Positions 28,226 through 54,666 are shown, numbered from the stretch's first letter. The stretch is DNA of 64,000 nt from a virus (IMGVR_UViG_2609459800_000001); one strand, 5' to 3'. The notes: generated from the letters alone by a model not told the origin. A program made the numbers and translations.

Positions 28226-28247
28226 ATGCCCGGTTGATGCCGGGCAT
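28226..28247. terminator. Bidirectional terminator between the convergent ant and c1 genes
   Basis: ATGCCCGG-ttgatg-CCGGGCAT hairpin. Confidence 0.7.
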
Positions 28248-28250
28248 AAT

Positions 28251-31793: not shown

Positions 31794-31997
31794 TTATAAT
31801 TGAGCCGTGGCGTTAGTCAACTACGAAGACGTGGCCATTACCTACTTAACCAGTTCCGCCAGGGCAGCAGAGTAGGTTTCATCTCGGATGTACCATGCCT
31901 GCATGTTTTCCAGAGAAGCCCGCGAGGTTCCCGGACAGGACTCTGCCATTGCGATAGATTAAATGCAATAACCTAAAAGCGATAACGTGGTGGAAAA

Positions 31998-32635
31998 ATG
32001 TTCATCAGAGCTTATTTAAGGGCATCAACGGAAGATCAGTTTGCCGATCGGGCAAAAGAGATGCTGGGGCAGTTTGTTCAGGAGCGGGGACATAAAATAG
32101 CCAGTTACTACCGGGAGAACATAAGCGGTACAAAACTCGACCGCCCGGAACTGGGACGCTTACTGATGGACAGCCACCGCAATGATATTTTACTGGTCGA
32201 GCAAATTGACCGCCTGACCCGTCTGAGTAACAGTGACTGGATTACGCTGAAAAAGCAGATAGAACAACACGAACTGCGGATTGTCGCCTGGATGTATCCA
32301 CCTCATGGCAGGCGCTGTCAGATAAAGACCCTTCGCAGGCTGACCCAATCACCCGCGCCGTGATAACCGCCATCAATAACATGCTTATCGACCTGATGGC
32401 CGCGATGTCGCATAAGGACTGGCTGAGCCGTCGCCAACGGCAACAACAGGGAATTGAACGGGCTCATACGCTGGGTAAATACCGGGGATAACAGGCCGAT
32501 CAGGAACGGCATCAGAAAGTCCTGTACTACCGGCAGGTCAAGAAACTAAGTATCCATGAAACGGTAGATGCGACAGGGTACAGTCCTTCACAGATATGCC
32601 GCATTCAAGAGAGCCTGAATCGGAATAAAAAGTAG
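31998..32635 (+). pseudogene. Serine recombinase/resolvase (tnpR-like), disrupted
   Basis: The N-terminus MFIRAYLRASTEDQ... has the catalytic Ser motif. There is a -1 frameshift near 32288 (GTCGCC|CTGGAT) and an in-frame TAA at 32489..32491. The C-terminal HTH can be read through to 32635. Confidence 0.75.
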
Positions 32636-32734
32636 CCCTGGCGTTAATGGATTACCTTTCCAGGCTAAGCTCATTGCTCCTGTCAGATACGCAGCCCTGC
32701 CTGTAATAATACAGACTGGGCAATGTGTTGCCAC

Positions 32735-33148
32735 TCAGGCTGACAACTGTCGGAGGATATCCGCTGTATTATAATGAGCCCGTTTTTCTATATATTTCCC
32801 GTCCTTCAGAGTGATCATAAATATCAGAGAAAAGCGCACTTTCCTGCCGCTGGCAGGATGCCCAAGGAATTCACGGGTCTGCACGCCTTCAAAGATAAGA
32901 TAGCAGGCGACTTTATCGTCTCTGGCAAAGATTTCGTGGATACGCATTGTAAATCCCGGAAAAGCATCCATATGGCCTTTTTCCTGTACGATAAACTGCT
33001 CACTGTTCAGCGGTGTATCCACCTGAGAATAGAATTTAAAATCCGGATGGCAGAGGTTTTTCACCTCATCATATTTATTTTCTTCAATCAGACGATAAAA
33101 CTTTTTAACCGTTTTGATATTTTCTTCAACAGACATATTGCACCTCAT
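32735..33148 (-). CDS. SnoaL-like / ester cyclase family protein
   Basis: 137 aa with the NTF2-like pattern (...KKFYRLIEENKYDEV...DFKFY...HMDAFPGF...). Confidence 0.55.
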   Translation of the reverse strand: MRCNMSVEENIKTVKKFYRLIEENKYDEVKNLCHPDFKFYSQVDTPLNSEQFIVQEKGHMDAFPGFTMRIHEIFARDDKVACYLIFEGVQTREFLGHPASGRKVRFSLIFMITLKDGKYIEKRAHYNTADILRQLSA

Positions 33149-34134
33149 TTTTCAGTTTCTTTACCTGCCGGAATATTGCCTGCCGGCGTTCCGTTAAATG
33201 TTTTTCGCCATTCACTGGGACTGACTCCCATCCGCTGCCGGAATATCTGCCGGAAAGTAATGGTGGACTGAAAGCCTGCCAGTTCGGCAACCCGCTCCAC
33301 TGCAATATCTGTACTTTCCAGCAGTTCCTGACTCCGCCGGAGACGCTCTGTGGTGATCCACTCCCAGACCGTCATTCCTGTGGCCGAATGAAAATGGCGT
33401 GTAAGCGTTCTTCGGCTCATGGAGGCTAAATGGGCCAGAGTGTCAATATCATGTGGTAATCCCAGATTTGCGGACAGGTATTCCAGCAGCTGGTTTATGC
33501 GGTTATCGGACGTACTTTTGGGAATAAGCAGTTGCCGGTACTGTGCCTGTCCGCCTTCCCGGTAAGGAGGAGCAACCATCCGGCGGGCTATTTGATTAGC
33601 CGTATATCTGCCCAGGCGTTGCCGGATCACATGGAGACAACAGTCCAGTGCTGCGGCTGTACCGGCTGAGGTGATAATCCGCTCGTCCTCAACATAAAGC
33701 ACGTTCACGTCCAGATGAACCGCCGGGAAAAGCATCTGGAAATCCCGTTCAGCCTCCCAGTGCGTGGCCGCCCGTTTACCATCCAGCAGACCGGTGTAAG
33801 CCAGAACAAAACTCCCCAGGCACAGGCCCACCACCTGAGCTCCATTTTTCCAGGCTGCAACCAGGGCACTGAGCAGAGTTTCAGAAGGCCTTTCATGGAT
33901 GTGTTTCCAGAAAGGAATAATAACGATATCGGCCTCTGCCAGTGCATCAAGCCCGTATTCTGCCCTCATCGCCGTACCTTCAGCAGACCAGATAAGCCCG
34001 GGCTCTTCCGCACATACCCGGCGGCTGAAGAGAGCCTTCCCTTCCAGTATCTCCCCGAACAGGATTAGTGGAACGGAGACATGAAATGTACTGAACCCTT
34101 CGGTGATCACTATAGCGACAGTGATGGTGGACAT
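33145..34134 (-). CDS. GlxA-family transcriptional regulator (DJ-1/PfpI domain + AraC HTH)
   Basis: 329 aa. The N-terminal DJ-1-like domain has GLCLGSFVLA and the C-terminus has an AraC-type double HTH. Confidence 0.75.
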   Translation of the reverse strand: MSTITVAIVITEGFSTFHVSVPLILFGEILEGKALFSRRVCAEEPGLIWSAEGTAMRAEYGLDALAEADIVIIPFWKHIHERPSETLLSALVAAWKNGAQVVGLCLGSFVLAYTGLLDGKRAATHWEAERDFQMLFPAVHLDVNVLYVEDERIITSAGTAAALDCCLHVIRQRLGRYTANQIARRMVAPPYREGGQAQYRQLLIPKSTSDNRINQLLEYLSANLGLPHDIDTLAHLASMSRRTLTRHFHSATGMTVWEWITTERLRRSQELLESTDIAVERVAELAGFQSTITFRQIFRQRMGVSPSEWRKTFNGTPAGNIPAGKETEK

Positions 34135-34149
34135 GCCATGGCCTCCGGG

Positions 34150-34926
34150 TTAAATCGTAACTGATTCACCATCAGCAGGAACGGCAACTGACGCCTGGAT
34201 CTGGTTATCGCGGGCATATTCCAGCAGTTCCTGACGGGTCAGCAGACAGTGGTTTACGGCCTCCATGTGCGTTGCCACAATCAGTGCCTCTGGTACGATA
34301 CGATGGGCTTTCAGGACATCTTCCCTGCCGAAAATAATGGGGCCGAATCCGAGAACATGCGCCCAGCCCGTATTCATAATAACGACGCCAGGATTGAACC
34401 GACGTAAATTATCCTCTACAGCCTTGATCCAGATGGTATCCCCGACCAGATAGAGCGTTTTTTCGGACGGATGCTGGAAGACCACCCCACAGGCATCCCC
34501 AAGGATTGCTGCGAGTTGCGGGTTAGCATAGGCTTCGTCCGAACCATGCTGACAAACGGTTTTAATAAGTGAAATTTCGCCAAATGTGCTTTTGTCAGAC
34601 AGAATAACAAGGTTGCTGAAGCCCTGGGAACGCAGGATCTTTTCATCATGTTCATTCTGAACATAAATCAGTTTATCTTTCGGGATGTGCGCAACAGCCG
34701 CTTCATCCCAGTGGTCAGGGTGTGTGTGGGTGACAATAATGGCATCCACATCCAGCAGTACATCAAGGTCAAAAGGCAGCTCAGTCATCGGGATGCGGAT
34801 ATCTGACCGGGCCGTTCCTTCGAATCCCGGATAGGCTTCTTTTTTCGCAAGCATCGGATCGACAAGAAATTTTTTACCAGCGTAAGAAATGAGTTGTGTG
34901 GCGTTACGTACCTGGATGATCTTCAT
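34150..34926 (-). CDS. MBL-fold metallo-hydrolase
   Basis: 258 aa with the HxHxDH motif (VTHTHPDHW). Confidence 0.75.
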   Translation of the reverse strand: MKIIQVRNATQLISYAGKKFLVDPMLAKKEAYPGFEGTARSDIRIPMTELPFDLDVLLDVDAIIVTHTHPDHWDEAAVAHIPKDKLIYVQNEHDEKILRSQGFSNLVILSDKSTFGEISLIKTVCQHGSDEAYANPQLAAILGDACGVVFQHPSEKTLYLVGDTIWIKAVEDNLRRFNPGVVIMNTGWAHVLGFGPIIFGREDVLKAHRIVPEALIVATHMEAVNHCLLTRQELLEYARDNQIQASVAVPADGESVTI

Positions 34927-35168
34927 TTTAGCAAGTCCTGTATTGGTTAATAACCATCAGAGCCATATCATGATGGCCTAATGTGATAATTATGATTAAA
35001 TCAGGCCTGCCTGCCACTGAAATAATGCCATATTTGGATGATATCAGGCCATTCTTCTGGCTCTCAGGTTTCAGGAATATGTCTGCTGAAAGCGGGTACA
35101 GATCTGACGCATTGAAGGGAAGTATCGTCCTTTAAGGCTTATTGATGTCAGCCAGTACAAAAAATCAT

Positions 35169-35206
35169 CTTAACGTACAATATCTTCCGTTTCCCAAACG
35201 GAGCCC
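35169..35206. repeat. Tn3-family 38-bp terminal inverted repeat
   Basis: The reverse complement is GGGCTCCGTTTGGGAAACGGAAGATATTGTACGTTAAG (GGG...ACGTTAAG). It matches the inner IRs of the 235-bp elements at ~33/38 positions. Confidence 0.8.
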
Positions 35207-35719: not shown

Positions 35720-36361
35720 ATGGATAAGAAAATATGCGTTGTTTCAATGAGCGTCGGCAAACCGGCGTCAATGACTGCTGCATGGATCAACAATGAGCTG
35801 ATAATGGCTGAGCGGACCAGCTACCCTGAACGCCGCCGCGATATGGAACTCCAGCTGCTGCGCGAATTGCGAGAAAAAGAGGAAAAGGGTTTTATCGTGC
35901 TGGTGGAAGAGGAAAACAGCTTTATTACCGGTCAAGTTGGCCAGCGTGTAAGGTTGCGTGATCCCTTCATGAACGGCAGACCGGTACTGATTGAAGCAAT
36001 GCAGATTTACAAGGAATTGGAACGCCAGAAAGCGATCAAGTTACCGCGCAAGGAATCCGGCAAATACATCCTTCACCAAAGCATCTTCGATTCCGAACAC
36101 GATAAAAAAGGCGATGAATTTTTCAACATCAACTGGAGCGAAATAACGACAGAGCATGTTCTGACGTTACTATGTTGCTTTGCGACGGAATACAACAACG
36201 TTGCCAGCGCCGACTACATCAGGGCAATGGCTGGAGAAGTTGAAGCCCGCCAGGAACCATCGTTACTAAGTCCACTTATTAACATAATTCTGGGTACCCA
36301 GACACTGGAACAAAAAAAAGTGCCGAAAGGGGTATTAACAGGCAAGCATAATTATTTCTAA
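35720..36361 (+). CDS. mat: Particle maturation protein
   Basis: ORF following ref as in P1. The start is chosen at ATG 35720 within track ORF 35693..36361. Confidence 0.6.
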   Translation: MDKKICVVSMSVGKPASMTAAWINNELIMAERTSYPERRRDMELQLLRELREKEEKGFIVLVEEENSFITGQVGQRVRLRDPFMNGRPVLIEAMQIYKELERQKAIKLPRKESGKYILHQSIFDSEHDKKGDEFFNINWSEITTEHVLTLLCCFATEYNNVASADYIRAMAGEVEARQEPSLLSPLINIILGTQTLEQKKVPKGVLTGKHNYF

Positions 36362-36559
36362 TAATTTATAGTGGGGACTTTTGATGGTGTAAAACCCCAT
36401 GAATTATTATTTTTTAGTTTTTTGATTCTATTTTTTTTGCATTACCCGTCATAAAAATGAGCTTGCTTACATAATAGAAAATTATTTTATCAACACTATT
36501 ACAACAAACGATTATCACTGATAACATGAGTCCTTTGAAAACAAAGGACTCACCATACT

Positions 36560-37168
36560 ATGTCTAATACCTCGGCAAATGAAATTGTACCGCACTTACC
36601 GCTAATTTTCGAAAATGAAGCTAATGGGATTCTTCAGGATCTGGCCTATACTCCATCGCTTATGGGGTTGATGATGTTCCCGACAGAAGAGGAGCTGAAA
36701 GCAGCGAGAAGCTACATAATTAACGTTTTTGAAGAGTGTTACCGAGCCGGTCATTTGCGCATTATGGGCTTTACTAATGAAGAAAACTTGTTCGGATACG
36801 CCTTAATCTTCGGACATCCATCGGGAAATTTTCCGTTGTACTGTCATAAAATATATGTATATGAGCAATATCGTGGTAATGGACTTGGAAGTAATATACT
36901 GGCAGAAATACTTGCATTTCCAAATGAGGTCGCTTTGATTTGCCAGTCTGATTTGGTTCCTTTTTATGAATCAGCCGGAATGCACTTTAAAGGAAATTAC
37001 ACCACTCCATCAGTCGCCAATTTCAAAAAAACTCGCGGCATGTATGAGGGGCTTTGTTTGATGAGCACTGAAAAAAATGCAAACTCTAATGGTGTACCTA
37101 TATTCATGCTGAACGATAACGATATTGATAACATCATACAGGCTATCGCATCATCGGCACCACGATAA
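36560..37168 (+). CDS. GNAT-family N-acetyltransferase
   Basis: 202 aa with acetyl-CoA motif A YRGNGLGSNIL. It is preceded by a ~200-bp very AT-rich spacer and a 9-bp-stem hairpin (36527..36551). Confidence 0.7.
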   Translation: MSNTSANEIVPHLPLIFENEANGILQDLAYTPSLMGLMMFPTEEELKAARSYIINVFEECYRAGHLRIMGFTNEENLFGYALIFGHPSGNFPLYCHKIYVYEQYRGNGLGSNILAEILAFPNEVALICQSDLVPFYESAGMHFKGNYTTPSVANFKKTRGMYEGLCLMSTEKNANSNGVPIFMLNDNDIDNIIQAIASSAPR

Positions 37169-37250
37169 TATTAATAATTCATCTCGCCGCAGGAACTACA
37201 AACCAGTTGATTGTTTGTGAAACGCCCGGTGCAAACCGGGCCAACAAAAC

Positions 37251-37499
37251 TCAATCAGCATTTAGTAGCAGAGCATTATCTATGATGATCTGCTCCCATT
37301 CTTCGAATGCCCGGTCGCGGACGCCCTGGGGAACGCTGTTTGTTTTGAAATCGACGACCGTCCGCCATTTTCCGTCAGGACGGTACATGCGCAGAGCTTT
37401 ACTTCCCCCTTCCCTGCGCACCTCAACGTTATGCTTGTCAGCAAACTCTTGTAATGCTCGTAGCGTCCCATGCTTTACTGTGTAGTATCGCTTTTTCAA
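37251..37499 (-). CDS. lxc: C1 co-repressor Lxc
   Basis: 82 aa. MKKRYYTVKHGTLRALQEFADKHNVEV... The size and position match P1 Lxc. Confidence 0.8.
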   Translation of the reverse strand: MKKRYYTVKHGTLRALQEFADKHNVEVRREGGSKALRMYRPDGKWRTVVDFKTNSVPQGVRDRAFEEWEQIIIDNALLLNAD

Positions 37500-37936
37500 G
37501 TTTTATCTCCAGCCTGTGCTAAGGCTTCAACTTCCAAATCGTAAGACTCAAACTCATAGTCCTGGTCGTCAACTTCTTCAGGCACTGGCAGTAAATGCCA
37601 GGCTGAGTATATCTGACCATTATCAAAACGCTCCTGGCTGTAGAGCGTCGCGGCTATGAGTGTTAGCGCCGGGCGGTCATAACGGTAAATTTTGCGAACG
37701 TCACGGTCAACGAGACGACCGAAATTACCATAACCGCGCTCCAGTAATAATTTTTTAATTTCCGGCCAGTATGGACCATAGCTGCGGTACAGGCGGGGAT
37801 TTTTCAGTAATCGCCCGCGTAGCCCTGACAGGAAGAAATCAACGTATTCGTCTTCTGTTTTTCCTAACAACGCTGTACGGAGTACCGCCTCAAGATATGT
37901 TTTATTCGGTTTTATTGTATCAGATAGTGTGACCAT
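37496..37936 (-). CDS. ulx: Ulx (needed for DarB packaging in P1)
   Basis: 146-aa ORF immediately upstream of lxc and downstream of darB, the position of P1 ulx. Confidence 0.6.
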   Translation of the reverse strand: MVTLSDTIKPNKTYLEAVLRTALLGKTEDEYVDFFLSGLRGRLLKNPRLYRSYGPYWPEIKKLLLERGYGNFGRLVDRDVRKIYRYDRPALTLIAATLYSQERFDNGQIYSAWHLLPVPEEVDDQDYEFESYDLEVEALAQAGDKT

Positions 37937-37969
37937 ATTATGCGACGCCCGGCGAACCGGGCGCTCCTG

Positions 37970-40095
37970 TTATGCGTATTGTTGGATGACGGCCAGAACG
38001 TCCGACACGTTGTGTTTTGTCTCGATAATCCACCAGTTGCCCGGGAAATCGCTGTTCTTCGCCTTCGCTGGCACCCAGCGAGCGCCGAATTTTTCCTTGA
38101 TTGCGTCTTTAGCACGGAAAAGAACGCCTTTCATGCCGGACGCCTCCTGAAGCCCAAATACCTCGCCAGCGGCGAATTTTGGTGCGTACATCATCTTCAG
38201 GTCGGCGGTGGATACGCGATAATTCAGACCAAGAGACTGAGCTATGCTGGTGGCATCACCCTGTATTGATGATAACTCTTCTTGTTTCTCGTTTCTGGCG
38301 GCAATTTCTTCCTCCGTGATGTTGCCAAGGGCCAGGTTTATCCGATCAGCGTCGGCCTGTTTCTCTTCATCGGTGCGCCCGGCAAGAACCGTGTTAATTC
38401 TCTGCAATATCTCCACATGATTCTTGCGCATGCTGAGCAATTCCGGCGTAACATCGTTAAGATCCACCAGCCCAAGGATGGCAAGGTCGGAAAACATTGA
38501 TACCAGGTTGTAGGTCATGCGATAGCTGAGTTGGCTATAGGCTGATGGCAACTGCACCGCATCCATTTGATAGGCATCCATAAATTTAGAGCCGTCGTTT
38601 ACGACATCCGCAATTGCCGGTGTGATTTTCCCTGTGGTGGCGGCCTCCCTGATTGCTGTTACCCACGATTGAGTCAGCGCGGCGACTGCATGATTCAGAT
38701 TGGCTTTCCGTTCTGCTGCAATGCGCGCGCTTGCTGCGTCCATTGCCTGCTTGATCTCGTCTTTATTGCTGTAAATGCCAATGGGACCAAACTGTGTTGT
38801 GGTGATCTCATAATCTGACGCCCGGAACTCATTGGTACCGAAAATGGCATTGGTGACCTCAAGTTCAGAATCCCCGTTACGAGTAGCCCCCTGACTTGTT
38901 TTCTCCGGCATTTTTGCGATCGCATCCGCTATTTTCTCCTGAATTGCTTCAGGGGATAGCGTATCTCCGTATGACGCGATTACATCGCTATAATTGGATC
39001 CAAACAGTTCAGTCAGGAATACTTCTGCCAAACGGACCTGGCGGTTATTCCCTTCCGACATCATACCAAGCACCCATTTAGCAATTGACGACTTCAGCGC
39101 GCCGTCACGGCGATCCGGGTAAACCGCATGCTTCAGTGGGTCCGTATAGGTACCAACAAAATCAATGCTATAGCCTGACTCTGTAGTCTGAACGCCGTAT
39201 GAGTCAGTGATTTTGATCATGCCGCGCTGCTGGAAACGGTAGAAATCGTCACAGGAAATGATGTCGTTAATCCCGGCGATGGAGACGCCACCACTGATTT
39301 TCTGCATAACAGCATCTTCATCGGGAGTTACATCCACCTGTTATCCAGCGTCTTCACATCCCAGTTACCCGATTTGGTGCCTTTGAAGGTAAAGATGATC
39401 TCCACGTCTGCGCGCTGGCTGTCGAAGTCCAGCGACTTAATGCGAACGATATCACCGGCACAATCGTAGTATTGGCCTACACGCCATGAGCGATCGCCGA
39501 TAACAAGGAACTCACTCGCATGGTTAACCAGGTCAGGATCAACATCCAGAATGCCTTTATTTATTGCATCCTCCACCAGTGGGCGCAGGCGTTTGATATC
39601 CGTCGCGGCCTTCTGAGTACGGTTCAATAATTTCTCATAGCGGGAGATGGCTTGAGAGATATTAGCCTTGCGCTGAATGGCGCTTTTCAACGACGCGCGA
39701 TACTGTGCTAACAACATACGGTCTGTGTGATGGACACTCCCCCAGCGGGCCTTCCAGTCTGCGTTATCAGCTGCTTTGGCCATTACCGCCTGTTTGAATT
39801 TAGCTACCTCGGCGGTGGTCTTTTCAAATTCCGCTTTGCTTCGCTCTAATTCAGCGGTAAGTACCTCCACATCCTCACCAGCTGCGTGCTGCGCCTTGAT
39901 GTAGTTCTGAAGGTCGATAGTAGCCTGTTCTTTCTGGCGAGCGCGTTGCGCGGCTTTCGCCTTATCCATTTGAACCTGCATCATTGCCAGACGTTCACCG
40001 TCATCCTTCGCGGTATACATCTGCATTTCGATCATATCATTGGCGTCGGCGTTCTCCATTTCTGACTTATCTGAACGGAGGATATCGGAGATCCT
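37970..40095 (-). pseudogene. darB: darB, 3' portion (two overlapping reading frames)
   Basis: ORFs 37970..39337 and 39328..40119 are co-linear and overlap by 10 nt. The upstream one runs into the TIME-like element, so its apparent start lies in transposon DNA. Confidence 0.6.
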
Positions 40096-40330
40096 GGGCT
40101 TCGTTTGGGAAACGTACAATATTGTACGGTTGCGCTATTGCGGTAGGGTGTACTCCAACGCTATACGGTCTTTGGCAGACCTTTAGGGAAATGAGATAAG
40201 CTAAATGCGATAAGAGAAAAGCAATAACTTAAAGGCAATAGCTGATTACGATAAATCAATCAGTTACTTATCAGTATCGATTAAAAAATGCTCCTAACGT
40301 ACAATAATTTCCGTTTCCCAAACCGACCCC
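40096..40330. mobile_element. TIME-like 235-bp non-autonomous Tn3-family element, copy A
   Basis: The 38-bp ends are GGGCTTCGTTTGGGAAACGTACAATATTGTACGGTTGC (outer) and, in inverse orientation, GGGGTCGGTTTGGGAAACGGAAATTATTGTACGTTAGG (inner). There is no coding capacity. Confidence 0.8.
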
Positions 40331-40520
40331 TAATAGCCGGACTACGGACGCGCAATAATTCGCCCCTGACTTTCCAGCAGTTGGTAAGCATGTCCGACGG
40401 TCATGAAGCTCATGCCGCTGCTGGCGACCTGTTCGCGCAGTGACGGCAGACGATCGCCGGGTCGCCAGACGCCAGAGGCGATCTGTTCGCAAAGTTGTTC
40501 AGCCAGACGCTGGTATTTTT
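40331..40520 (-). pseudogene. GntR/MocR-family regulator (YdcR-like), N-terminal wHTH fragment
   Basis: The minus strand reads ...YQRLAEQLCEQIASGVWRPGDRLPSLREQVASSGMSFMTVGHAYQLLESQGRIIARP, then TAG, and is cut by copy A. Confidence 0.65.
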
Positions 40521-40691
40521 TATTCTGGTTTCTCGTCGGTCAATGCAGGTGAGCCTCGCAGTGTATAACAGTGAATAAAATTCACAACGATTTGCAAACT
40601 GTTATGGTTAAATATGTCTGTTCTGTTTCTGCCCCTCATTGCCTCACACGCTTAGAATTGCGCTGAATCAATTTTTAATGCGGAGTCAGGC

Positions 40692-42092
40692 ATGTTTGGT
40701 CTTGATGCGTATCACCTGGCAAGGATCCAGTTCGCCTTTACAGTTTCATTTCACATTATCTTTCCGGCGATCACCATTGGGCTTGCCAGTTATCTGGCGG
40801 TGCTGGAAGGCCTTTGGCTAAAAAGCAAAAATCCGGTCTGGCGCTCGTTGTACCACTTCTGGTCAAAAATATTCGCCGTAAATTTCGGCATGGGCGTGGT
40901 TTCCGGTCTGGTGATGGCCTATCAGTTCGGCACCAACTGGAGCGGTTTTTCGGAATTCGCAGGCAGTATTACCGGGCCGTTGCTTACCTATGAGGTGCTG
41001 ACCGCTTTCTTCCTTGAAGCCGGATTCCTCGGGGTGATGCTGTTTGGCTGGAATAAAGTCGGTCCGGGTTTGCATTTCTTCTCAACCTGCATGGTGGCGC
41101 TTGGCACCCTCATTTCCACCTTCTGGATCCTGGCGTCTAACAGTTGGATGCAAACGCCGCAGGGGTTTGAGATCGTCAACGGCCAGGTTGTGCCCGTGGA
41201 CTGGTTCGCCGTTATCTTCAATCCTTCGTTCCCTTATCGGCTGCTGCATATGTCCGTCGCCGCATTTCTCAGTAGCGCGCTGTTTGTCGGCGCTTCGGCA
41301 GCCTGGCATCTGCTGCGCGGCAACGCAACGCCAGCCATTCGCACGATGTTTTCCATGGCGTTGTGGATGACGCTTATTGTCGCGCCGGTGCAGGCGTTAA
41401 TCGGCGATATGCATGGGCTGAACACCCTGAAACATCAGCCAGCCAAAATCGCCGCGATTGAAGGTCACTGGGAAAACCCGCCGGGTGAGCCCACGCCGCT
41501 GCTGCTGTTTGGCTGGCCGGATATGGAACAGGAACGCACCCGCTATGGACTGGCGATCCCGGCGCTGGGAAGCCTGATCCTGACGCACAGTCTGGATAAA
41601 CAGGTTCCGGCGCTAAAAGAATTCGCCAAAGAGGATCGCCCTCACTCGACGATCGTGTTCTGGTCGTTTCGCATCATGGCCGGCCTGGGCATGTTAATGA
41701 TCCTGCTAGGGCTCTGTGCGCTCTGGCTGCGCTACAGGCAGCGCCTCTACACCTCGCGCCCGTTCCTGCGCTTTGCGCTATGGATGGGACCCTCGGGGCT
41801 CATCGCCATTCTCGCGGGCTGGGTGACCACTGAGGTCGGACGCCAGCCGTGGGTGGTGTACGGTTTACAGCGTACTGCCGACGCGGTGTCGGCCCACGGC
41901 GATTTACATATGAGCATTTCGTTGCTCGCTTTCTTTGTTGTCTACAGCTCAGTCTTTGGCGTCGGCTACAGCTATATGATTCGCCTGATCCGCAAAGGCC
42001 CGCTGGAAGATGATTCCGCGCCGCCGCCGGGCACACCCGCCAGGCCGCTTTCCGCCGCCGTCCTCGATTCTCAACATAAGGCACATCGCTAA
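40692..42092 (+). CDS. cydA: Cytochrome bd-type ubiquinol oxidase subunit I (short-Q-loop, CioA-like)
   Basis: 466 aa. ...ARIQFAFTVSFHIIFPAITIGLA...GWVTTEVGRQPWVVYG... are hallmark CydA motifs. It is shorter than E. coli CydA/AppC. Confidence 0.9.
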   Translation: MFGLDAYHLARIQFAFTVSFHIIFPAITIGLASYLAVLEGLWLKSKNPVWRSLYHFWSKIFAVNFGMGVVSGLVMAYQFGTNWSGFSEFAGSITGPLLTYEVLTAFFLEAGFLGVMLFGWNKVGPGLHFFSTCMVALGTLISTFWILASNSWMQTPQGFEIVNGQVVPVDWFAVIFNPSFPYRLLHMSVAAFLSSALFVGASAAWHLLRGNATPAIRTMFSMALWMTLIVAPVQALIGDMHGLNTLKHQPAKIAAIEGHWENPPGEPTPLLLFGWPDMEQERTRYGLAIPALGSLILTHSLDKQVPALKEFAKEDRPHSTIVFWSFRIMAGLGMLMILLGLCALWLRYRQRLYTSRPFLRFALWMGPSGLIAILAGWVTTEVGRQPWVVYGLQRTADAVSAHGDLHMSISLLAFFVVYSSVFGVGYSYMIRLIRKGPLEDDSAPPPGTPARPLSAAVLDSQHKAHR

Positions 42093-43102
42093 TGGGTATT
42101 GATTTATCGGTTATCTGGTTTGTGATCATCGTTTTCGCCACGCTAATGTATATCGTGATGGATGGATTCGATTTGGGTATTGGCATTCTGTTTCCTGTCA
42201 CACGAAACGCAGAGGATCGTGATGTGATGGTCAATAGCGTCGCGCCGGTGTGGGACGGTAATGAAACCTGGCTGGTGCTGGGCGGCGCGGGGCTGTTTGG
42301 GGCTTTCCCGATGGCCTATGCGGTTATTATCGATGCGCTGACCATTCCGTTGACGCTGATGCTGATCGGACTGATTTTTCGCGGCGTGGCCTTCGAGTTT
42401 CGCTTCAAGGCCACGCCAGCCCACCGCCCATTTTGGGACCATGCTTTTCTCGGCGGGTCGATTCTGGCTACCTTCGCCCAAGGGATCGTGGTTGGCGCAG
42501 TGATCAACGGTTTCCCGGTGACCGGTCGCAGCTACAGCGGCGGGCCGTTCGACTGGTTAACCCCCTTCACTCTGTTCTGTGGCGTCGGACTGGTCGTTGC
42601 CTATGCGCTCTTAGGCGCAACCTGGCTGGTGATGAAAAGCGAAAATCCGCTTCAGGATAAAATGCGCAGCGTCGCGAAAAAACTGCTGCTGGCCCTGCTG
42701 TTGTCAATTGCGATAATCAGCCTCTGGACACCGTTAGCGCATCCGGCGATCGCCGACCGTTGGTTTACGCTTCCCAACCTGGGCTATCTGCTGCCGGTTC
42801 CGGTGCTGGTGATCGCGTTCAGCGTCTGGTTATGGCGCACACTGGGTCGTCCGGAAAACCACACGTTTCCGTTTGTGCTGACGCTCGGGCTAATCTTCCT
42901 TGGTTTCAGCGGCCTGGGCATCAGTATCTGGCCGCACATTATTCCGCCTTCGGTTACCCTCTGGCAGGCAGCCGCCCCCGCCCAGAGTCAGGGGTTTATG
43001 CTGGTCGGTGCGCTGCTCATCATTCCGGTGATTTTGGTGTACACCTTCTGGAGTTACTATGTGTTTCGCGGCAAAGTGCAACATGGCGAGGGGTATCACT
43101 GA
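42092..43102 (+). CDS. cydB: Cytochrome bd-type ubiquinol oxidase subunit II (CioB-like)
   Basis: 336 aa with a TAATG overlap with subunit I. It has the MDGFDLGIGIL...WDGNETWLV motif. Confidence 0.9.
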   Translation: MGIDLSVIWFVIIVFATLMYIVMDGFDLGIGILFPVTRNAEDRDVMVNSVAPVWDGNETWLVLGGAGLFGAFPMAYAVIIDALTIPLTLMLIGLIFRGVAFEFRFKATPAHRPFWDHAFLGGSILATFAQGIVVGAVINGFPVTGRSYSGGPFDWLTPFTLFCGVGLVVAYALLGATWLVMKSENPLQDKMRSVAKKLLLALLLSIAIISLWTPLAHPAIADRWFTLPNLGYLLPVPVLVIAFSVWLWRTLGRPENHTFPFVLTLGLIFLGFSGLGISIWPHIIPPSVTLWQAAAPAQSQGFMLVGALLIIPVILVYTFWSYYVFRGKVQHGEGYH

Positions 43103-43230
43103 TGCAACATTCTCTCTGGAAACGCCTGATGTGGCTGGTCATCCTTTGGGGCGGCAGCGTGTTGGCGCTGGCGGCGGTGGGCATGTTTTTTCGCCTGCTC
43201 ATGACTGCGGCGGGGTTTAAAGCGCATTAA
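43102..43230 (+). CDS. Small membrane protein (DUF2474-like) downstream of cydB
   Basis: MQHSLWKRLMWLVILWGGSVLALAAVGMFFRLLMTAAGFKAH (42 aa). The ATG overlaps the cydB stop. It corresponds to the last 42 codons of track ORF 42760..43230. Confidence 0.55.
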   Translation: MQHSLWKRLMWLVILWGGSVLALAAVGMFFRLLMTAAGFKAH

Positions 43231-43334
43231 GCGGACACCTCGCCGGATGTCGGCTTTGGGCCAGGCGTTAACCGGCGGAAATAAATACCAACACAAAGGC
43301 CCGGTAAACGCCACCGGGCTGATGTCGCAAAGGA

Positions 43335-43748
43335 TTAAGGTTTACGCTTCGGCAGCGTTTTCATCAGATCTTCCGGACTGACGGAACCCACCACGCTGCC
43401 CGGCAGCGGCATTTTAAGAATGTGATCTTCAATCTTGCCGATAACGTGCATTTCACACGGGCGACAGCCAAATTTCAGCGTCAGCACCTCATCACCGTTG
43501 ACCAGTTGCATTGGCGTCGCTTTCCAGCTTTTGATGTTACCTTTCGCCTGTTTCGGGCAAAGATTAAAGGCAAAACGCAGGCAATGCTTGGTGATCATCA
43601 CAGGCACATCGCCCTTTTCTTGATGCGCTTCATACGCCGCGTCGATCAACTGTACGCCATAACAATGGTAGAACTCACGCGCCTTCTGGTTATAGACGTT
43701 TGCCAGAAAACTCAGATGCGTCTGCGGGTAGACCGGCGCGGGATCGGA
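43335..43748 (-). pseudogene. U32-family peptidase (YdcP-like), C-terminal fragment
   Basis: The minus strand reads ...LSFLANVYNQKAREFYHCYGVQLIDAAYEAHQEKGDVPVMITKHCLR...KRKP. The 5' part is cut off by copy B. Confidence 0.6.
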
Positions 43749-43983
43749 GGGGTCGGTTTGGGAAACGGAAATTATTGTACGTTAGGAGCATTTTTTAATC
43801 GATACTGATAAGTAACTGATTGATTTATCGTAATCAGCTATTGCCTTTAAGTTATTGCTTTTCTCTTATCGCATTTAGCTTATCTCATTTCCCTAAAGGT
43901 CTGCCAAAGACCGTATAGCGTTGGAGTACACCCTACCGCAATAGCGCAACCGTACAATATTGTACGTTTCCCAAACGCAGCCC
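43749..43983. mobile_element. TIME-like 235-bp element, copy B (inverted relative to copy A)
   Basis: By eye, its reverse complement is identical to copy A except for one base (6th position, G vs T). Confidence 0.8.
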
Positions 43984-44991
43984 AGGTACGCGTTTTTAAT
44001 TGCCATATCCCGCGCCGATTGCGCCACCGCGCTGGTGGGCAGATAGGCCAGTTGTGACGCTTCGCGACCATTTTTATAGCTATTGCGGTAGTTGTGACCT
44101 TCGTCGGCGATCACACTATCGAAGCCCATATCCTCAAAGTACGGATACTTCTCTGCTTTTTCGGTGCCGGTATCTGAATACTCCGACAATACCCGGCGAC
44201 GCGCGGCCTCTTTGCGGTGGGAGTCGGAGTCCATTGCGCTGGCTACGCGCCCGGCAGCAACGAAGTCATAAAGCATATCCTGTGCATGCTCATCTACGGT
44301 GTCATCACGTAGCGGAATGCGGGCGTATTGTTCTTTGGTAAACACGACTGCACGGTAATTTGAGTGCGGGATTGCATTCATACGTGCCGTGATAGTGGCT
44401 TCATCTGCCAGTTTAAGGGCATCGCGCATAACTGGAGTGCCATCAGTACCAAGAACAGGTTTACCGTTCTCATCGAGCACCGGCACCTGGCGAATCTGAT
44501 CGCCATCCATCAGCACATCAAGACCGACAAACAGGTAGTTACTGAATGCCTCTTCACTCAGGAACTCTTTTGCTTCGTAATACCAGTTTTCCAGCACTGA
44601 TTTATATTGTCTCATTAAAAACGCCGGTGCCCGCCGATGGTTCCAGAGTGTTACCTACGTCCGCGCCATAGAGGTTCATGATCTCCCAGACGCCTTCAGC
44701 GATAGGCTTTGGTGTGTAATATTCGGAGACGGACCCGCCAATGCCGCCTTCGCCGGTGTACCCAGCCAGGATCTGGCGCTGTTCATCTGTCAGTGTCGCG
44801 CCATCCACCAGCGAATTAAGCAAATCTATCGCCTTCTGATTCGCCTCCCGGCGCAGCCGGTCATAGCTTTTGCCTTCCACCTTTTCCACGCCGTATCTAA
44901 TCGGCGCTCGATGAGATGTTATTGCCCTAATGTATTTCAATATTTCGCTGACACTTGAACAGCGAAACACCCCCATAGATAGCTTGTTCAT
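43984..44991 (-). pseudogene. darB: darB, 5' portion (methyltransferase and start of helicase region), frameshifted
   Basis: 44602..44991 ends with the SAM-MTase motif I LEPSAGTGVF. 43893..44615 carries the helicase motif DEGHNYRN. The two frames overlap by 14 nt, and the reading frame runs into copy B. Confidence 0.7.
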
Positions 44992-45001
44992 TGGTAATCC
45001 T

Positions 45002-45023
45002 TAACAAGTGATTAGTGTTAAAT
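45002..45023 (+). promoter_or_regulatory. Candidate late promoter of prt-pro (AACAAGTGATT-N5-TAAATT)
   Basis: Shared late-motif architecture, about 45 nt upstream of the prt start. Confidence 0.55.
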
Positions 45024-45053
45024 TCCGTTCAAACACGATGCGAATTATTCTAA

Positions 45054-47787
<2,734 letters not shown>

Positions 47788-49294: not shown

Positions 49295-49491
49295 ATGTGT
49301 AAAAAACGACTGAAAGAAAAGCGGTGGTCCAGACGCCGACAAAAGCACGAACTCGCAAACAAACGCCAAAGTTGGCAATGGCACGCGCTTTTCACGAAAA
49401 GAACACCCCGAGATATTGCTTTCGCTGGTGGGAAAACATTCCTGACCCACCTGAAGGCGCAATACATCAGGTTTTAAGCAGAGGAAAGACT

Positions 49492-50169
49492 ATGAATAAC
49501 ATGACAACGAAAGAGCTTTTGACGGCACTTCCAAAATACAAAAGCCATAAAACAGTTCGCGCCTCAAAAATCAAAGATATCGAAATTATCGCCCTAATGG
49601 ATGTGGTCCTTTTTTGCAACATCGAAGTCGTTGAGCCAGAAGGGGTAAAAGTCCATGTTGATAAAATGTTTTTGCAAAAACACCGACCAGAAATTGGCGG
49701 ATATCTGGTCGCTTATGAGGACGGATCTCTGTCCTATTCACCAGAAAAAACATTTGAAGAAGGCTTTAGTCGGACTAACGACTTCTTCGAAAATGGGGTA
49801 TCGCTCAGTATTGAAGGTCACAATGGGGTGACATTCATTACAGCCAGGGACGTAACTATTGCTGCCAGTGGCATCATTACCACACAAGAAGAAATCGACC
49901 TTGAAGCAGCCGACTTTTCTGACGCGCTGATGTGGCTGAAGGATGGCAAGAAAGTTGCTCGACGCGGGTGGAACGGCGAAAACCAATTCTGCTGGCTGGT
50001 TCCTGAAGGACAGTACCCGGCACGAATGGAAGCCATTAAGGGATATTTCCCCGGCGACCTCGTTCCGTATGGTGCTTATTTCGCCTTAAAAAATGCACAA
50101 GGTGTAGTTGTTCCGTGGGTGCCTTCTGTATGCGACTTACTGGCATGTGACTGGTTTGTAGTGGAGTGA
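49492..50169 (+). CDS. Two-domain protein with a C-terminal DUF2829 (Tad2-like) domain
   Basis: 225 aa from ATG 49492 (RBS AGAGGAAAG). The C-terminal ~85 aa FSDALMWLKDGKKVARRGWNGENQF...VVPWVPSVCDLLACDWFVV fit the DUF2829 pattern. Confidence 0.65.
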   Translation: MNNMTTKELLTALPKYKSHKTVRASKIKDIEIIALMDVVLFCNIEVVEPEGVKVHVDKMFLQKHRPEIGGYLVAYEDGSLSYSPEKTFEEGFSRTNDFFENGVSLSIEGHNGVTFITARDVTIAASGIITTQEEIDLEAADFSDALMWLKDGKKVARRGWNGENQFCWLVPEGQYPARMEAIKGYFPGDLVPYGAYFALKNAQGVVVPWVPSVCDLLACDWFVVE

Positions 50170-50993: not shown

Positions 50994-51311
50994 TCAATAT
51001 ACGATCTGGTCTACATGATCCCCAAAATCATCGTCGTCATCGTCGTCGTCCTCATCGCCACCCTCTACTGCTGGCCAATCAACAAACCAGCCAGCGTAAA
51101 GATGCAGCGTTCGGAGAACATCACTTGCGGGAGCATCAAGGGTGTTAACGAATCCCATATAGCTATTGGGATTTGCCCCAGCTATGGCTTCAGCGATCAT
51201 GTCCTCGGTAATGTCACCGGAGATAATGCTTAAACGCCCGGAAACTTCTTCATTATCATCAAATTCGATAATGGCATCTCCGCCTAATGGCGCTGCGATT
51301 TTAATCTGCAT
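50994..51311 (-). CDS. Small highly acidic protein with a poly-Asp tract (last gene of the dar operon)
   Basis: 105 aa ending ...GGDEDDDDDDDDFGDHVDQIVY. Its start overlaps the ddrB stop by 11 nt. Confidence 0.6.
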   Translation of the reverse strand: MQIKIAAPLGGDAIIEFDDNEEVSGRLSIISGDITEDMIAEAIAGANPNSYMGFVNTLDAPASDVLRTLHLYAGWFVDWPAVEGGDEDDDDDDDDFGDHVDQIVY

Positions 51312-54288
51312 TATTTAGCTCCTTTGCCACACCTAATAACAGTTCCAGCAATCCGTCACCATTCATCAGTGATGCGGCAGCGGCCTCTTTGTCATGATAC
51401 AACTGAAGAGCCATAGAGAATACTTCCGTTGCTGACGTTTTGGAAATAGTCGGGGATTTCTGCCGAATTTTCCCAGTGTTACTTACTGAGGCTGGCGGGG
51501 ATACCTTCGCCATATAAATATTACTCAATCGAGATCTGAAGCACCATTCAGGCTTGCCACGCCCACCGATATTAACGAAAGATGGCTTATCCCCTTCAAC
51601 ATTGGCCTTCAGGAATGACCGGGCTTTCTCTAACAAACCAGGGTTACTGTACTCAAGATGATGACCCAGCTCGTGCCACAGTGCACTTGCATTTTCATCG
51701 TTCAAATTGACAGCAACAACACCATTAAGATTTGCATATGCCCTTCCCTTGTGGTGAACCACCTTTGATAAGGTCGAAATTTTACCGCCGGTCAGGCGAT
51801 AAATATCAGCAAGTTCCTTGCGCAGGTCTATCCCACCATTCTGTCCAGCGCGGGCTTCTTCCACTTCTTCCGTGATAAAAGAGTCGGCCCACTCAAGAGC
51901 TTTTTCTTCAGATACGGATGAGTTTGCGATCGCACTGTTCATGGCAGATAACACTTTCTCGTGGACCGAACCCATACTTCGCTGATTCATTTGCCAGCGT
52001 GTCTGCGGGTTATATGAGAATCGCTTAAGTAGTTGGTCAAGATGCTCAAGTTCTTCTTCACTGACATACTTTTTAGCCTCACCAATAATGCCAGGGAGAA
52101 TATTGCCGTTAGGATTAAACGCTCGCGAAAGGAAGAGTTTCAGCGCCCCCATGCCCTCCGATGCTTCAATATCACCAATAACCCGGTTAACAATGGCCGC
52201 ACTCTTCGGATTAGCATCCGCCAACGCTCTGGCTACAATTTGCAGGGACGATACGACCTCACGCTGCATATCCGTCCTGATCTCATCAATAAACTCTGGC
52301 GTTATGCCGTGCTCTTTAAGGATATCCCTGCCTTCCGCCGTTACCCCATCGATATCACCGACATGTTTATTAACCCGACTTTGCAATGCCTTAAATGCCT
52401 TCAGAATTCCACGGGCATCATCAGCTTTACTAACGGCCTTCCTGAATGCTGGCAAGAAGTCAGAGTTAACCTCATTTTGTTGATCGGCCCACTGAATGGA
52501 GGCTTCTTTCATCTCGTCCAGAGTCAGATCACCCAACGCGGTATGGTCTGTGAATATGAGCGACAACCTCTGAACCATTTCTGCCAATGGTGATGCCGAA
52601 TGCGCCGCGCTAAGGAATGCTTTCACCCTGGTTGGGCGAATGGAAAACCAGTCAATAGCTGGTGGCATATCTCCGTTTTTTATCGCCTGCGCTATCTCGT
52701 CAAAGCCATCGCGCCCAAGGGAGGATGCGTGATTTAACAAGCCGCGAAGTAACGAATTGCTGATACCGAATAATCGGCACCATTTTTTCACGTCGGCAAC
52801 AGGCATTCGAACAAAATGCGCAAGCACTTGTACAAGCTGTTCATCCTGGGGATCTGTGCGGGAAAGCAGCCTGATCAGATGAATAATGTCTTTGATGCCG
52901 GATGCCCGATGTAATAGCAAACTGGTATACGGAGCAACACCGTTGTAACTACCGCCGGAAACGGACTCGAAAAGACCGCCGGATATCCCTTGCATGCCTT
53001 CGTATTCCAGTTCCTGAGACACCTGGCGAAGGATATCCTGTAACGACACATCGCCGCCGCCAAACATATCCCCGAGCGCCTGGCCCTGGTGCTGTAACTC
53101 ATCATTGATACGTTGCGCCATCAACTTAAAGGCGGTGGCCATACGCTTCGCGCTACGGTTATTCGCGACGATGAACAACGCGAGTGCTTTCACTTCCGGG
53201 GCCGTTTCGCTGAACATATCCCCCTGAGCAATAACATCGGTAATATGCTGGCCTGACTCCTTCGATTGCCTTACCAGGTCTACCGCATCTTTCAATGCCG
53301 CCAGCGCCTTTTTATCGAGGCTATCCGCTGTCTCAATGCCATCAACAATAGTTGTCACAGCCTGCTTGTGCGCTTCTCCTGATAAAGCCTGCATCTGGAC
53401 AAAATCATTGGCTGCCGCATTAAGCGCCGTCAGAACATTACGCATATCCGGATCAGGTTCTTCTGCAACCATCCTTACCAGGCGCGCATCCTTATATGCC
53501 TTGGCAAAGATCGCGTTTTGTATACGGTCAACAAGTTGCCGTGTTGGTCGCCCATCTTCAGTTACAAGGCCAGCCGCCTGTGTGGCACCAACTTGCGTCA
53601 TGAATCCGCGAATAAACGCGTCATTACTGCGGCTAAGCAGATCTCCGCTTTCTGACGGGTTAAACAACGCCATCATCGCCGGTGTTATGCTGTCGGCATC
53701 AACAAAAGCCTTTTCACTGGCTGCCATTTCCTGGAGATCAGAAATATTTGAGTCCTTGGCAAACTGAACACGGTCAACCTTCGTTAACCGGCGGCGCACC
53801 AGTACCGGAGCCGTCATTGATTCAACCTTTTCAGGCCGTATGCCGAATTCGGTCGCATGTTCAATCAGGTACTCCCGATACCGATCCGCATTACCGTCCT
53901 GATAGGCTTTGATGATCCCCATGGTCCGTCCATTACCTGACTCAACGGCATTGTCCTCACCAATTATCGGCGCGCCATGGCTGGATAAACCGGAATCAGT
54001 AAGCTGAGCAGGCCGCAAATCTTTGGATATCTGGTTAACCTGAAGAAGGCTGGATGCGCGGGTCCGGTCGCGCGGCTGAAGTTCCTGGGGATAGTCAGGA
54101 TTAATTTTCCCATCCAGAGTATTGGATACCAAAAGAGCTGAGGCATCGACGATATCAAACGCTGTTTTTACCTCGTCTCCCTTCGCTGTCACCACATACG
54201 AAACCCGCCCATAATCGGGCAGGTTCTTTAGCAGCTCGATCAGCGTTTCTATGCTGGTGGCCATTACCACCTGATCGCTTAAGCTCAT
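51301..54288 (-). CDS. ddrB: Large dar-operon protein DdrB
   Basis: 995-aa ORF downstream of darA/ddrA as in P1. It contains an HELGH (HExxH) motif encoded at 51661..51675. Confidence 0.7.
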   Translation of the reverse strand: MSLSDQVVMATSIETLIELLKNLPDYGRVSYVVTAKGDEVKTAFDIVDASALLVSNTLDGKINPDYPQELQPRDRTRASSLLQVNQISKDLRPAQLTDSGLSSHGAPIIGEDNAVESGNGRTMGIIKAYQDGNADRYREYLIEHATEFGIRPEKVESMTAPVLVRRRLTKVDRVQFAKDSNISDLQEMAASEKAFVDADSITPAMMALFNPSESGDLLSRSNDAFIRGFMTQVGATQAAGLVTEDGRPTRQLVDRIQNAIFAKAYKDARLVRMVAEEPDPDMRNVLTALNAAANDFVQMQALSGEAHKQAVTTIVDGIETADSLDKKALAALKDAVDLVRQSKESGQHITDVIAQGDMFSETAPEVKALALFIVANNRSAKRMATAFKLMAQRINDELQHQGQALGDMFGGGDVSLQDILRQVSQELEYEGMQGISGGLFESVSGGSYNGVAPYTSLLLHRASGIKDIIHLIRLLSRTDPQDEQLVQVLAHFVRMPVADVKKWCRLFGISNSLLRGLLNHASSLGRDGFDEIAQAIKNGDMPPAIDWFSIRPTRVKAFLSAAHSASPLAEMVQRLSLIFTDHTALGDLTLDEMKEASIQWADQQNEVNSDFLPAFRKAVSKADDARGILKAFKALQSRVNKHVGDIDGVTAEGRDILKEHGITPEFIDEIRTDMQREVVSSLQIVARALADANPKSAAIVNRVIGDIEASEGMGALKLFLSRAFNPNGNILPGIIGEAKKYVSEEELEHLDQLLKRFSYNPQTRWQMNQRSMGSVHEKVLSAMNSAIANSSVSEEKALEWADSFITEEVEEARAGQNGGIDLRKELADIYRLTGGKISTLSKVVHHKGRAYANLNGVVAVNLNDENASALWHELGHHLEYSNPGLLEKARSFLKANVEGDKPSFVNIGGRGKPEWCFRSRLSNIYMAKVSPPASVSNTGKIRQKSPTISKTSATEVFSMALQLYHDKEAAAASLMNGDGLLELLLGVAKELNNAD

Positions 54289-54300
54289 CCCTGTTACGCC

Positions 54301-54666
54301 TTATGCTGCCTCTTTAATGTTGGCGGCTATCCATGCCGCCGTGTGCTGTTTAACCTGGTCCAGGTCGATGTATGTGCCAACATATTGACTCAAGTCTTGC
54401 AAGGTACCGATAAATGCATCTGTGCTCTGATCGACGAATTTATCAGCCAGGAAATCAGCAACCAGTTTTGGCACACCATCATGTTCCGAAGGTTGTTTTT
54501 CATCGCCACTACCACCGCCGGACGCGCCGTACCCCATCTGTTGCATGATCTGGTCAATTTCATCGCTGATATCCAGCAACTCCATGCCACTCGCGGTGGC
54601 CGCTTTGGACATCAGAGCATCCAACTTATCGCTGAGATCCATTAACTCAATAGCTGATAGTGTCAT
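54301..54666 (-). CDS. ddrA: Small acidic dar-operon protein DdrA
   Basis: 121-aa ORF whose start overlaps the darA stop. The position is as in P1. Confidence 0.6.
   Translation of the reverse strand: MTLSAIELMDLSDKLDALMSKAATASGMELLDISDEIDQIMQQMGYGASGGGSGDEKQPSEHDGVPKLVADFLADKFVDQSTDAFIGTLQDLSQYVGTYIDLDQVKQHTAAWIAANIKEAA

Follow-up and report, generated by a model that had tools for sequence, protein, structure and literature searches.

A darB pseudogene bearing a cytochrome bd operon between two miniature Tn3-type elements in a P1-like phage-plasmid

Introduction

Bacteriophage P1 carries the antirestriction gene darB (P1_gp011; NC_005856, 10469-17236, minus strand) as one gene of 2,255 codons, whose product is a polyvalent protein that joins a methyltransferase (MTase) to an SNF2 helicase. 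DarB inhibits EcoK and EcoB, and its loading is aided by Ulx and DdrB; DdrA acts against EcoA, and DarA and Hdf serve in head-size determination and Dar incorporation (PMC9024508, PMC12810830). The first 30 amino acids (aa) of DarB are a capsid-targeting signal (PMC9024508), the MTase and the SNF2 ATPase have been proposed to act jointly (PMC5512222), and darB is nonessential for the growth of P1 (PMC10695390). To help load DarB is the only published role of Ulx (PMC9024508, PMC10695390). Here, we analyzed the darB locus in a 64,000-nucleotide (nt) stretch of viral DNA (IMGVR_UViG_2609459800_000001; hereafter the window), which is a portion of a P1-like phage-plasmid that has the P1 genes in P1 order with several non-P1 segments between them.

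The closest laboratory counterparts are darB deletion mutants of P1 (Iida 1987; Piya 2017, as presented in PMC9024508 and PMC12810830). As far as these two accounts describe them, the mutants have lost DarB and kept darA, hdf, ddrA, ddrB, and ulx, as in the window, and the same phenotype, sensitivity to EcoK and EcoB, is predicted here for the window allele. Unlike those deletions, the window allele is a natural one; it retains the capsid-targeting signal in a stub of 129 aa and has acquired 3.9 kb of foreign DNA. This DNA is bounded by two copies of a short Tn3-type miniature element (TIME), and two TIME copies around captured DNA form a composite known as a TIME-COMP (PMC4133298; PMC13367494). 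The named enterobacterial TIMEs are 209, 244, 256, and 288 bp in size, and inversion of the cargo between inversely oriented TIMEs is known for other TIME-COMPs (TIME244 composites; PMC13367494).

Results

Four collinear remnants of darB lie between ulx and prt

A megablast search with 37000-46000 of the window matched P1, P7, and approximately 17 further P1-type phages at 97-98% identity, with a query coverage of 54% only. The darB locus occupies 37970-44991 on the minus strand, between ulx and prt, the position that it has in P1. When P1 DarB was aligned to the window by tblastn, it gave four ungapped collinear pieces instead of one continuous open reading frame (ORF) of about 2,255 aa; 1,041 of the 2,255 codons (46%) are kept, in frames -2, -3, -2, and -1. 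The remnants are 97-98% identical to P1 darB at the nucleotide level, collinear with it, and flanked by ulx and prt; given this level of identity, a chance match is not an issue, and the pieces descend from darB. The remnants and the two lesions that separate them, apart from the insert described below, are as follows.

44602-44991, minus strand: N-terminal stub ORF of 129 aa (DarB aa 1-128 plus one new residue and a stop); tblastn match of aa 1-128 at 44991-44608, frame -2
44604-44607, unstranded: junction of a 2,269-bp internal deletion with the filler TA at 44605-44606; nucleotide alignment to P1
43984-44603, minus strand: fragment of aa 886-1092, part of the SNF2 N-lobe, with the DEGH motif II present and Walker A absent; tblastn match at 44603-43983, frame -3, 100% aa identity
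39343-40092, minus strand: fragment of aa 1549-1798; tblastn match at 40092-39343, frame -2
39340-39341, unstranded: 1-nt deletion (TTT to TT) at P1 position 11840, shifting the frame at about aa 1799; alignment to P1
37970-39340, minus strand: fragment of aa 1800-2255 with the original stop codon; tblastn match at 39340-37973, frame -1

An initial annotation, made from the sequence of the window, had regarded P1 DarB as a single protein of about 2,255 aa, which is correct, and had described the locus between ulx and prt as decayed into four frames with roughly half of its length gone. The loss of length agrees with the 46% of codons left, and there are indeed four fragments; they lie in three frames rather than four. 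The locus is 7,022 nt long and, after subtraction of a 3,888-nt insert, 3,134 nt remain, as in the earlier estimate of about 3.1 kb of non-transposon sequence; 3,123 nt of these align as codons.

Two deletions, an insertion, and a frameshift account for the broken gene

The 2,269-bp deletion removes P1 NC_005856 14583-16851, corresponding to DarB aa 129-885, and leaves 2 nt of filler and a shifted reading frame. Since the microhomology at its junction is only trivial, we regard it as an illegitimate deletion. This junction gives another meaning to the 14-nt overlap (44602-44615) between the ORFs at 44602-44991 (129 aa) and 43893-44615 (240 aa): the overlap is real, while the simple frameshift between MTase and helicase that had been read from it is not. 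The insert (40095-43982, 3,888 bp) interrupts the helicase frame, as the initial annotation had it, and stands in place of P1 12595-13960 (1,366 bp; aa 1093-1548, including Helicase_C). The distal part is split where previously noted, at the 10-nt overlap of the ORFs at 37970-39337 and 39328-40119 (39328-39337), with the 1-nt deletion at 39340/39341, which puts the last 456 codons of darB out of frame. The net change in length of the locus is +254 nt (+3,888 -1,366 -2,267 -1).

The Pfam domains of P1 DarB are N6_Mtase (PF02384) at aa 145-290, ResIII/SNF2 at aa 833-911, and Helicase_C at aa 1455-1517; a GKT motif at aa 859, which we take to be the helicase Walker A, is deleted in the window. 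The two motifs that first marked the locus, LEPSAGTGVF and DEGHNYRN, correspond to aa 116 and aa 1052 of DarB. The N6-adenine MTase domain falls within the 2,269-bp deletion, and motif I at aa 116 is all that remains of it. The SF2/SNF2 helicase core is likewise incomplete: Walker A and Helicase_C are gone, and DEGH at aa 1052 alone is kept. Profile scans against Pfam and NCBIfam gave zero matches for any of the four remnants. As judged from the DNA, the deletions and the insert together remove or cut every recognizable catalytic domain of DarB.

The stub differs from P1 DarB by two residues (K32R and K106N) and retains MTase motif I; its capsid-targeting signal, aa 1-30, is identical to that of P1. 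Over all remnants, 51 codons differ from P1 synonymously and 17 non-synonymously, and internal stops are absent. We chose these counts over a formal test for relaxed selection based on the ratio of non-synonymous to synonymous rates, which we rejected as underpowered because the alleles with the lesions differ from one another by only 1-2 substitutions in the best-conserved remnant. As the divergence of the remnants, mainly synonymous and free of internal stops, arose under selection, the inactivation should be recent. Taken together, these results support the earlier claim that darB is inactivated here, the alignment to P1 showing deletions, insert, and frameshift, and they indicate with a probability of about 0.9 that darB in the window is a recently formed pseudogene that arose from discrete structural events and not by slow point-mutational decay. 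Its pseudogene status is ordinary gene loss, and the allele of a relative is already a pseudogene in automatic annotation.

The insert is a TIME composite around a cytochrome bd operon

The insert consists of two TIME copies and the DNA captured between them, with the following features.

40096-40330, unstranded: left copy of the 235-bp TIME; repeat and alignment analysis
40331-40506, minus strand: truncated remnant of a GntR/MocR-type (PLP-dependent aminotransferase family) regulator; longer copy in pEC213_1-OXA-181
40692-42092, plus strand: intact cytochrome bd subunit I gene, cioA-like, 466 aa, apparently of the short-Q-loop type by its alignment pattern; PF01654, profile positions 1-418 of 418
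42092-43102, plus strand: intact cytochrome bd subunit II gene, cioB-like, 336 aa; PF02322, profile positions 1-302 of 302
43102-43230, plus strand: small DUF2474 protein (42 aa) encoded where a small oxidase subunit would be expected; PF10617, E=3e-15
43335-43748, minus strand: truncated remnant of a U32 peptidase/collagenase-like gene; PGAP pseudogene in pMB06172, longer copy in pEC213_1-OXA-181
43749-43983, unstranded: right copy of the 235-bp TIME, oriented opposite to the left one; repeat and alignment analysis

The TIME is non-coding, and each 235-bp copy has its own terminal inverted repeats of 33-38 nt, which start with GGGG/GGGC, one of them ending in ACGTTAGG; those of the left copy are GGGCTTCGTTTGGGAAACG... 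and GGGGTCGGTTTGGGAAACGG...ACGTTAGG. It is thus a short (50-500 bp) non-coding element with terminal repeats of the Tn3-family type. The repeats presumably resemble those of Tn21/Tn3 (27 of 38), a similarity that serves as a lead only. The arms of the composite are 239 nt long, inverted, and differ by one mismatch between the copies, and the TIME pair encloses 3,418 bp of captured DNA. No further TIME copies were found within the window, and an Rfam scan of 37000-46000 gave no match. Insertions of the element and its relatives elsewhere have 5-bp target duplications: a solo TIME in pRHB06-C11_3 is flanked by AATAA, and many F-type plasmids (e.g., NZ_CP024856.1, 1001-3420) contain a 2.4-kb element with ends that are TIME-related at 76-89% identity and with the duplication TTAAA. 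The latter element adjoins repA and holds an IS110-family transposase and a hypothetical gene.

The composite resembles the TIME-COMPs of PMC13367494 in having two short non-coding copies with GGGG-type repeats of about 38 nt, inverted around captured DNA, as well as in the solo copies with 5-bp duplications and in the inversion of the cargo in a relative. Unlike the TIMEs named there, its element is 235 bp long, which matches none of their sizes and sets it apart by length only. Unlike those composites, it has a respiratory oxidase operon instead of a resistance gene as cargo, a phage-plasmid as host replicon, and no flanking 5-bp duplication.

The operon of the cargo is full length, and the genes for subunits I and II overlap by one base. 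Its products score far below the NCBIfam cut-offs for the CydAB and AppCB proteins of Escherichia coli, and subunit I, with 466 aa, is shorter than the E. coli proteins (514-522 aa). In whole-chain, not residue-level, comparisons, subunit I aligns in two stretches to E. coli bd-I and bd-II and in one stretch to short-loop structures of 448-487 aa. With full domains of both subunits, a short subunit I, and the one-stretch alignment, the predicted enzyme may belong with the cyanide-insensitive, short-Q-loop CioAB oxidases, and its scores set it apart from CydA/AppC of E. coli; one plasmid copy of the cargo bears the annotation 'cyanide insensitive'. The two truncated genes had no match in Pfam or NCBIfam. 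In pEC213_1-OXA-181, the 3,418 bp are contiguous, 99.65% identical, and free of TIMEs, and the flanking genes, a PLP-dependent aminotransferase (MocR/GntR-type) and a U32 peptidase gene, run past the ends of the cargo. In the species-representative set, the nearest chromosomal relatives are from Citrobacter, at 96% aa and 83% nucleotide identity; because this best match reaches only 83% at the nucleotide level, the true donor should lie outside that set. By its predicted products, the cargo of this phage-plasmid is a third cytochrome bd oxidase, Citrobacter-like and also present in non-phage plasmids. In the literature, we found no description of a cytochrome bd operon on a P1-like phage-plasmid, nor of this darB allele.

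The same lesions occur in two phage-plasmids and, in part, in non-phage plasmids

Two relatives align to 37253-46000 of the window in one piece: pEcoUTI1e (NZ_CP049847.1; a bladder isolate from Mexico) at 99.2%, and contig 2 of pMB06172 (NZ_JBRNIL010000002.1; Galapagos seawater) at 99.4%. Both have the composite insert, the 1,366-bp loss, and the 2,269-bp deletion junction, and the flanks of both differ from the window in mosaic fashion. The 1-nt deletion is present in pMB06172, whereas pEcoUTI1e has the T; it is also found in the Salmonella IncHI1B plasmid pZ1322HSL0022-2 (South Korea) and is absent from the insert-free relatives. A 131-nt probe across the deletion junction was covered in full in 2 of the 465 matching E. 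coli genomes, namely those with pEcoUTI1e and pMB06172, and a search of IMG/VR with a 33-mer of the junction gave no match. In pMB06172, the two helicase-region remnants are annotated by PGAP as pseudogenes, one of them 'frameshifted'.

Elsewhere, darB is mostly whole or broken in other ways. Among 807 plasmids with darB-like DNA, 441 hold 80% or more of it uninterrupted, with a single N-6 DNA methylase gene as the annotation, and the insert-free closest backbone relatives of the window carry full-length darB. Other truncations of darB in relatives are different lesions in different contexts. For example, the P1-like IncY plasmid pTetA_020022 (7001-9331) retains just 1,512 nt of darB: a deletion spans the DNA between the 5' part of the gene and ssb, with prt, pro, and lyz lost, and points to a defective prophage. 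After ssb, this plasmid has a gene for an 'anti-phage deoxyguanosine triphosphatase'.

The insert is present in roughly 25-31 replicons. In some IncHI1B/IncFIB plasmids, darB holds this cytochrome bd cargo as well, in inverted orientation and with only one TIME. In pZ1322HSL0022-2 (8124-11656), the left junction and the 1-nt deletion are the same as in the window, the cargo is inverted with one TIME, and there is a further deletion. Between about 38500 and the insert, the window hardly differs from pMB06172 or from this Salmonella plasmid, and at about 37250-38500 it differs from both by approximately 2%; from pEcoUTI1e it differs by approximately 2% along the whole 3' arm. The insert itself is 99.9% identical in all three. 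Mosaic flanks around a near-identical insert thus suggest that the broken allele has passed by homologous recombination through the flanks of darB. The P1-derived fragment of the IncHI1B/IncFIB plasmids (lxc-ulx-darB' with upstream P1 genes, in one plasmid as far as cre-ref) ends within darB at P1 14437, and this end adjoins a Phd/YefM-RelE module.

The remaining Dar genes and the darB promoter are kept

The other genes of the Dar system, and a predicted promoter upstream of the stub, are located as follows.

37496-37936, minus strand: ulx, intact, 146 aa; full-length tblastn match
45047-45076, minus strand: PdarB-like sigma70 promoter, TTGTCT / 18 nt / TAGAAT; promoter scan and P1 annotation of PdarB
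51304-57186, minus strand: darA operon, intact; full-length tblastn matches
51304-54288, minus strand: ddrB, full length
54304-54666, minus strand: ddrA, full length
54666-56582, minus strand: darA, full length
56587-57186, minus strand: hdf, full length

The initial annotation had judged ulx, hdf, darA, ddrA, and ddrB intact, and each was found in P1 order as an ungapped full-length tblastn match to P1 with 97.5-98.9% aa identity. Approximately 45 other P1 genes in the window are also full length and ungapped, including cre, c1, coi, phd/doc, pacA/pacB, prt, pro, lyz, ssb, lyd, and the baseplate and tail genes, and the phage as a whole is apparently not decaying. With the loss of DarB, its one known client, ulx is now an orphan helper. 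The promoter region is shared with P1 darB. A private 1-nt deletion at about 45055 shortens the predicted PdarB spacer from 19 to 18 nt; it is not present in P1, pEcoUTI1e, or pMB06172. The sole product expected from the darB promoter would be the 129-aa stub. Since the predicted promoter and the capsid-targeting signal are kept and Ulx and DdrB are intact, the stub peptide could still enter phage heads.

Other features of the window

Just past ssb, a 281-aa ORF (49324-50169, plus strand) has a C-terminal Tad2-like domain (Thoeris anti-defence 2-like, formerly DUF2829; PF11195, E=6e-23). This ORF is located in 684 nt that do not match P1 (49496-50179), immediately upstream of an isaA homologue, and is probably the anti-defence candidate near ssb that had been mentioned before; a link between the loss of darB and anti-defence genes near ssb is speculation. 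At 36230-37246, the usual position between mat and lxc, the P1 res/mod genes (type III EcoP1I) had no match, in a comparison with a phage isolate whose own res/mod genes are deleted; their place is taken by a GNAT acetyltransferase ORF of 202 aa (36560-37168). With res/mod unmatched and darB broken, the phage therefore appears to be without its own restriction system and without DarB.

Several segments depart from P1. An 11-kb non-P1 segment (10138-21144) stands in place of most of pmgT, with ORFs that include PAPS-reductase-domain, Ead/Ea22-like, and DUF551 proteins. A 3.4-kb non-P1 segment (31842-35199) lies between c8 and ref and encodes an AraC-type/DJ-1 regulator (33145-34134, minus strand) and an MBL-fold hydrolase (34150-34926, minus strand), genes also present in pMB06172 and pTetA_020022; the N-terminal third of ref has no P1 match. 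Between pacB and c1, a non-P1 stretch (26531-28251) has a 343-nt piece that shares 85% identity with a portion of P1 ant1. The invertible tail-fibre segment (S/U/U'/S') at 58973-64000 is opposite in orientation to the reference and more divergent than the rest of the window, with 84-93% nucleotide and 74-95% aa identity.

Discussion

How the broken darB should be understood depends on several other explanations. The initial annotation itself named two ways in which it could be wrong, sequencing errors and a gene that relatives naturally encode in pieces, and neither is borne out. That errors of sequencing or assembly produced the frameshifts and gaps and hide an intact darB is close to inconceivable: the 1-nt deletion sits in a short T run, and pEcoUTI1e, with the same insert and large deletion, has the T, but this run is just 3 nt long, the same deletion is common to pMB06172 and the South Korean Salmonella plasmid, and the large lesions, which destroy darB by themselves, recur unchanged in the two independent assemblies of Mexican and Galapagos origin. 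Because the lesions are common to independent assemblies, we exclude sequencing error. Nor do we give much credit to a modular darB whose pieces function as separate natural genes, a reading that we consider very improbable. The darB-like genes are polymorphic among P1-like elements, some of which have divergent 'SNF2-related' versions or a 3' 3,969-nt 'helicase-related protein', and the stub ORF retains its promoter and capsid-targeting signal. However, when compared with DNA of 97-98% identity, the fragments break off at a 1-nt indel, a deletion junction, and the insertion of a mobile element, two remnant ORFs begin or finish inside that element, none of the remnants holds a complete domain, and the gene is full length in 441 of the 807 plasmid relatives, with the PGAP pseudogene calls for the two helicase-region remnants in the same direction.

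The remaining alternatives accept that darB is broken and concern how and why. Homologous recombination may have brought the allele in from a non-phage IncHI1B/IncFIB plasmid with a P1 fragment, in which darB was already useless, and we hold this as a tentative possibility. At least some 17 such plasmids are known against two phage-plasmids, pZ1322HSL0022-2 has the same left junction and 1-nt deletion with its cargo inverted and a P1 fragment that ends inside darB, and the mosaic differences around the insert have a breakpoint near 38500. On the other hand, the window has both TIME copies and the darB stretches 43983-44190 and 44460-44604 that the IncHI1B form lacks, which makes the window form structurally the more ancestral, and the transfer may equally have run the opposite way. 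It seems doubtful that the loss of darB was selected rather than neutral collateral, either to offset length under headful packaging or because DarB is costly or useless to an element that is mostly a plasmid. The small net change of +254 nt, the different truncations of darB in several other P1-derived plasmids, and the dispensability of darB for growth would fit such selection; yet size limits are loose, as P1-like elements of 115-126 kb exist, the near-compensation of length could be due to chance, the allele is rare (deletion junction in 2 of 465 E. coli genomes), and the intactness of all other examined phage genes speaks against general domestication. Less probable again is that the locus is a converted slot and not simply dead, in which a stub of approximately 14 kDa would be loaded and injected, darB would be a recurrent 'cargo bay' of P1-like phage-plasmids with the gain of cargo (the Citrobacter-type cytochrome bd oxidase by TIME-COMP) balanced by darB deletion (net +254 nt), and the allele would be traded with non-phage plasmids by homologous recombination.

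A recently formed pseudogene therefore remains the reading that we prefer, and some points weigh against it. The inactivation of darB is predicted from its DNA sequence, and the distal 456-706 codons, which have no known domain, could in principle have a residual independent function. The composite is not flanked by a 5-bp duplication; its flanks are GATCC(T) and AGGTA, with 1,366 bp of darB missing between them. We found no other site with both TIME copies around this cargo, so its route into darB is our reconstruction, and the order of events in the phage lineage may have been either insertion first or the import of an already broken allele.

The absence of a target duplication together with the loss of 1,366 bp is consistent with an insertion and a subsequent adjacent deletion mediated by a transposon end. 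In such a course of events, the TIME composite would insert in the helicase region of darB, and an adjacent deletion from one transposon end would then remove the 1,366 bp. A separate illegitimate deletion takes out aa 129-885, that is, the whole MTase catalytic region and Walker A. The cargo operon was probably the selected trait, with darB serving as a large dispensable landing site.

Since all catalytic domains are removed or cut, the phage should be restricted by EcoK/EcoB-type hosts. Its virions would be without functional DarB, and infecting or transduced DNA would be open to EcoK/EcoB-type type I restriction, a concrete predicted host-range cost. The functions that depend on DarA, Hdf, and DdrA would persist, i.e., capsid morphogenesis, Dar loading, and protection against EcoA.

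The importance of these findings is modest, and knowledge of DarB itself is unchanged; the mobile element and its cargo are more noteworthy than the pseudogene, yet of a known kind. The locus is a clean natural case in which a phage-plasmid lost an anti-defence gene at the point where metabolic cargo came in. It indicates that Tn3-derived miniature elements, which have so far been considered chiefly in connection with resistance genes, can also enclose an operon for a respiratory oxidase on a phage-plasmid. With one allele in phage-plasmids and in IncHI1B plasmids that carry a P1 fragment, it also provides a small, well-resolved case of gene flow between phage-plasmids and other plasmids.

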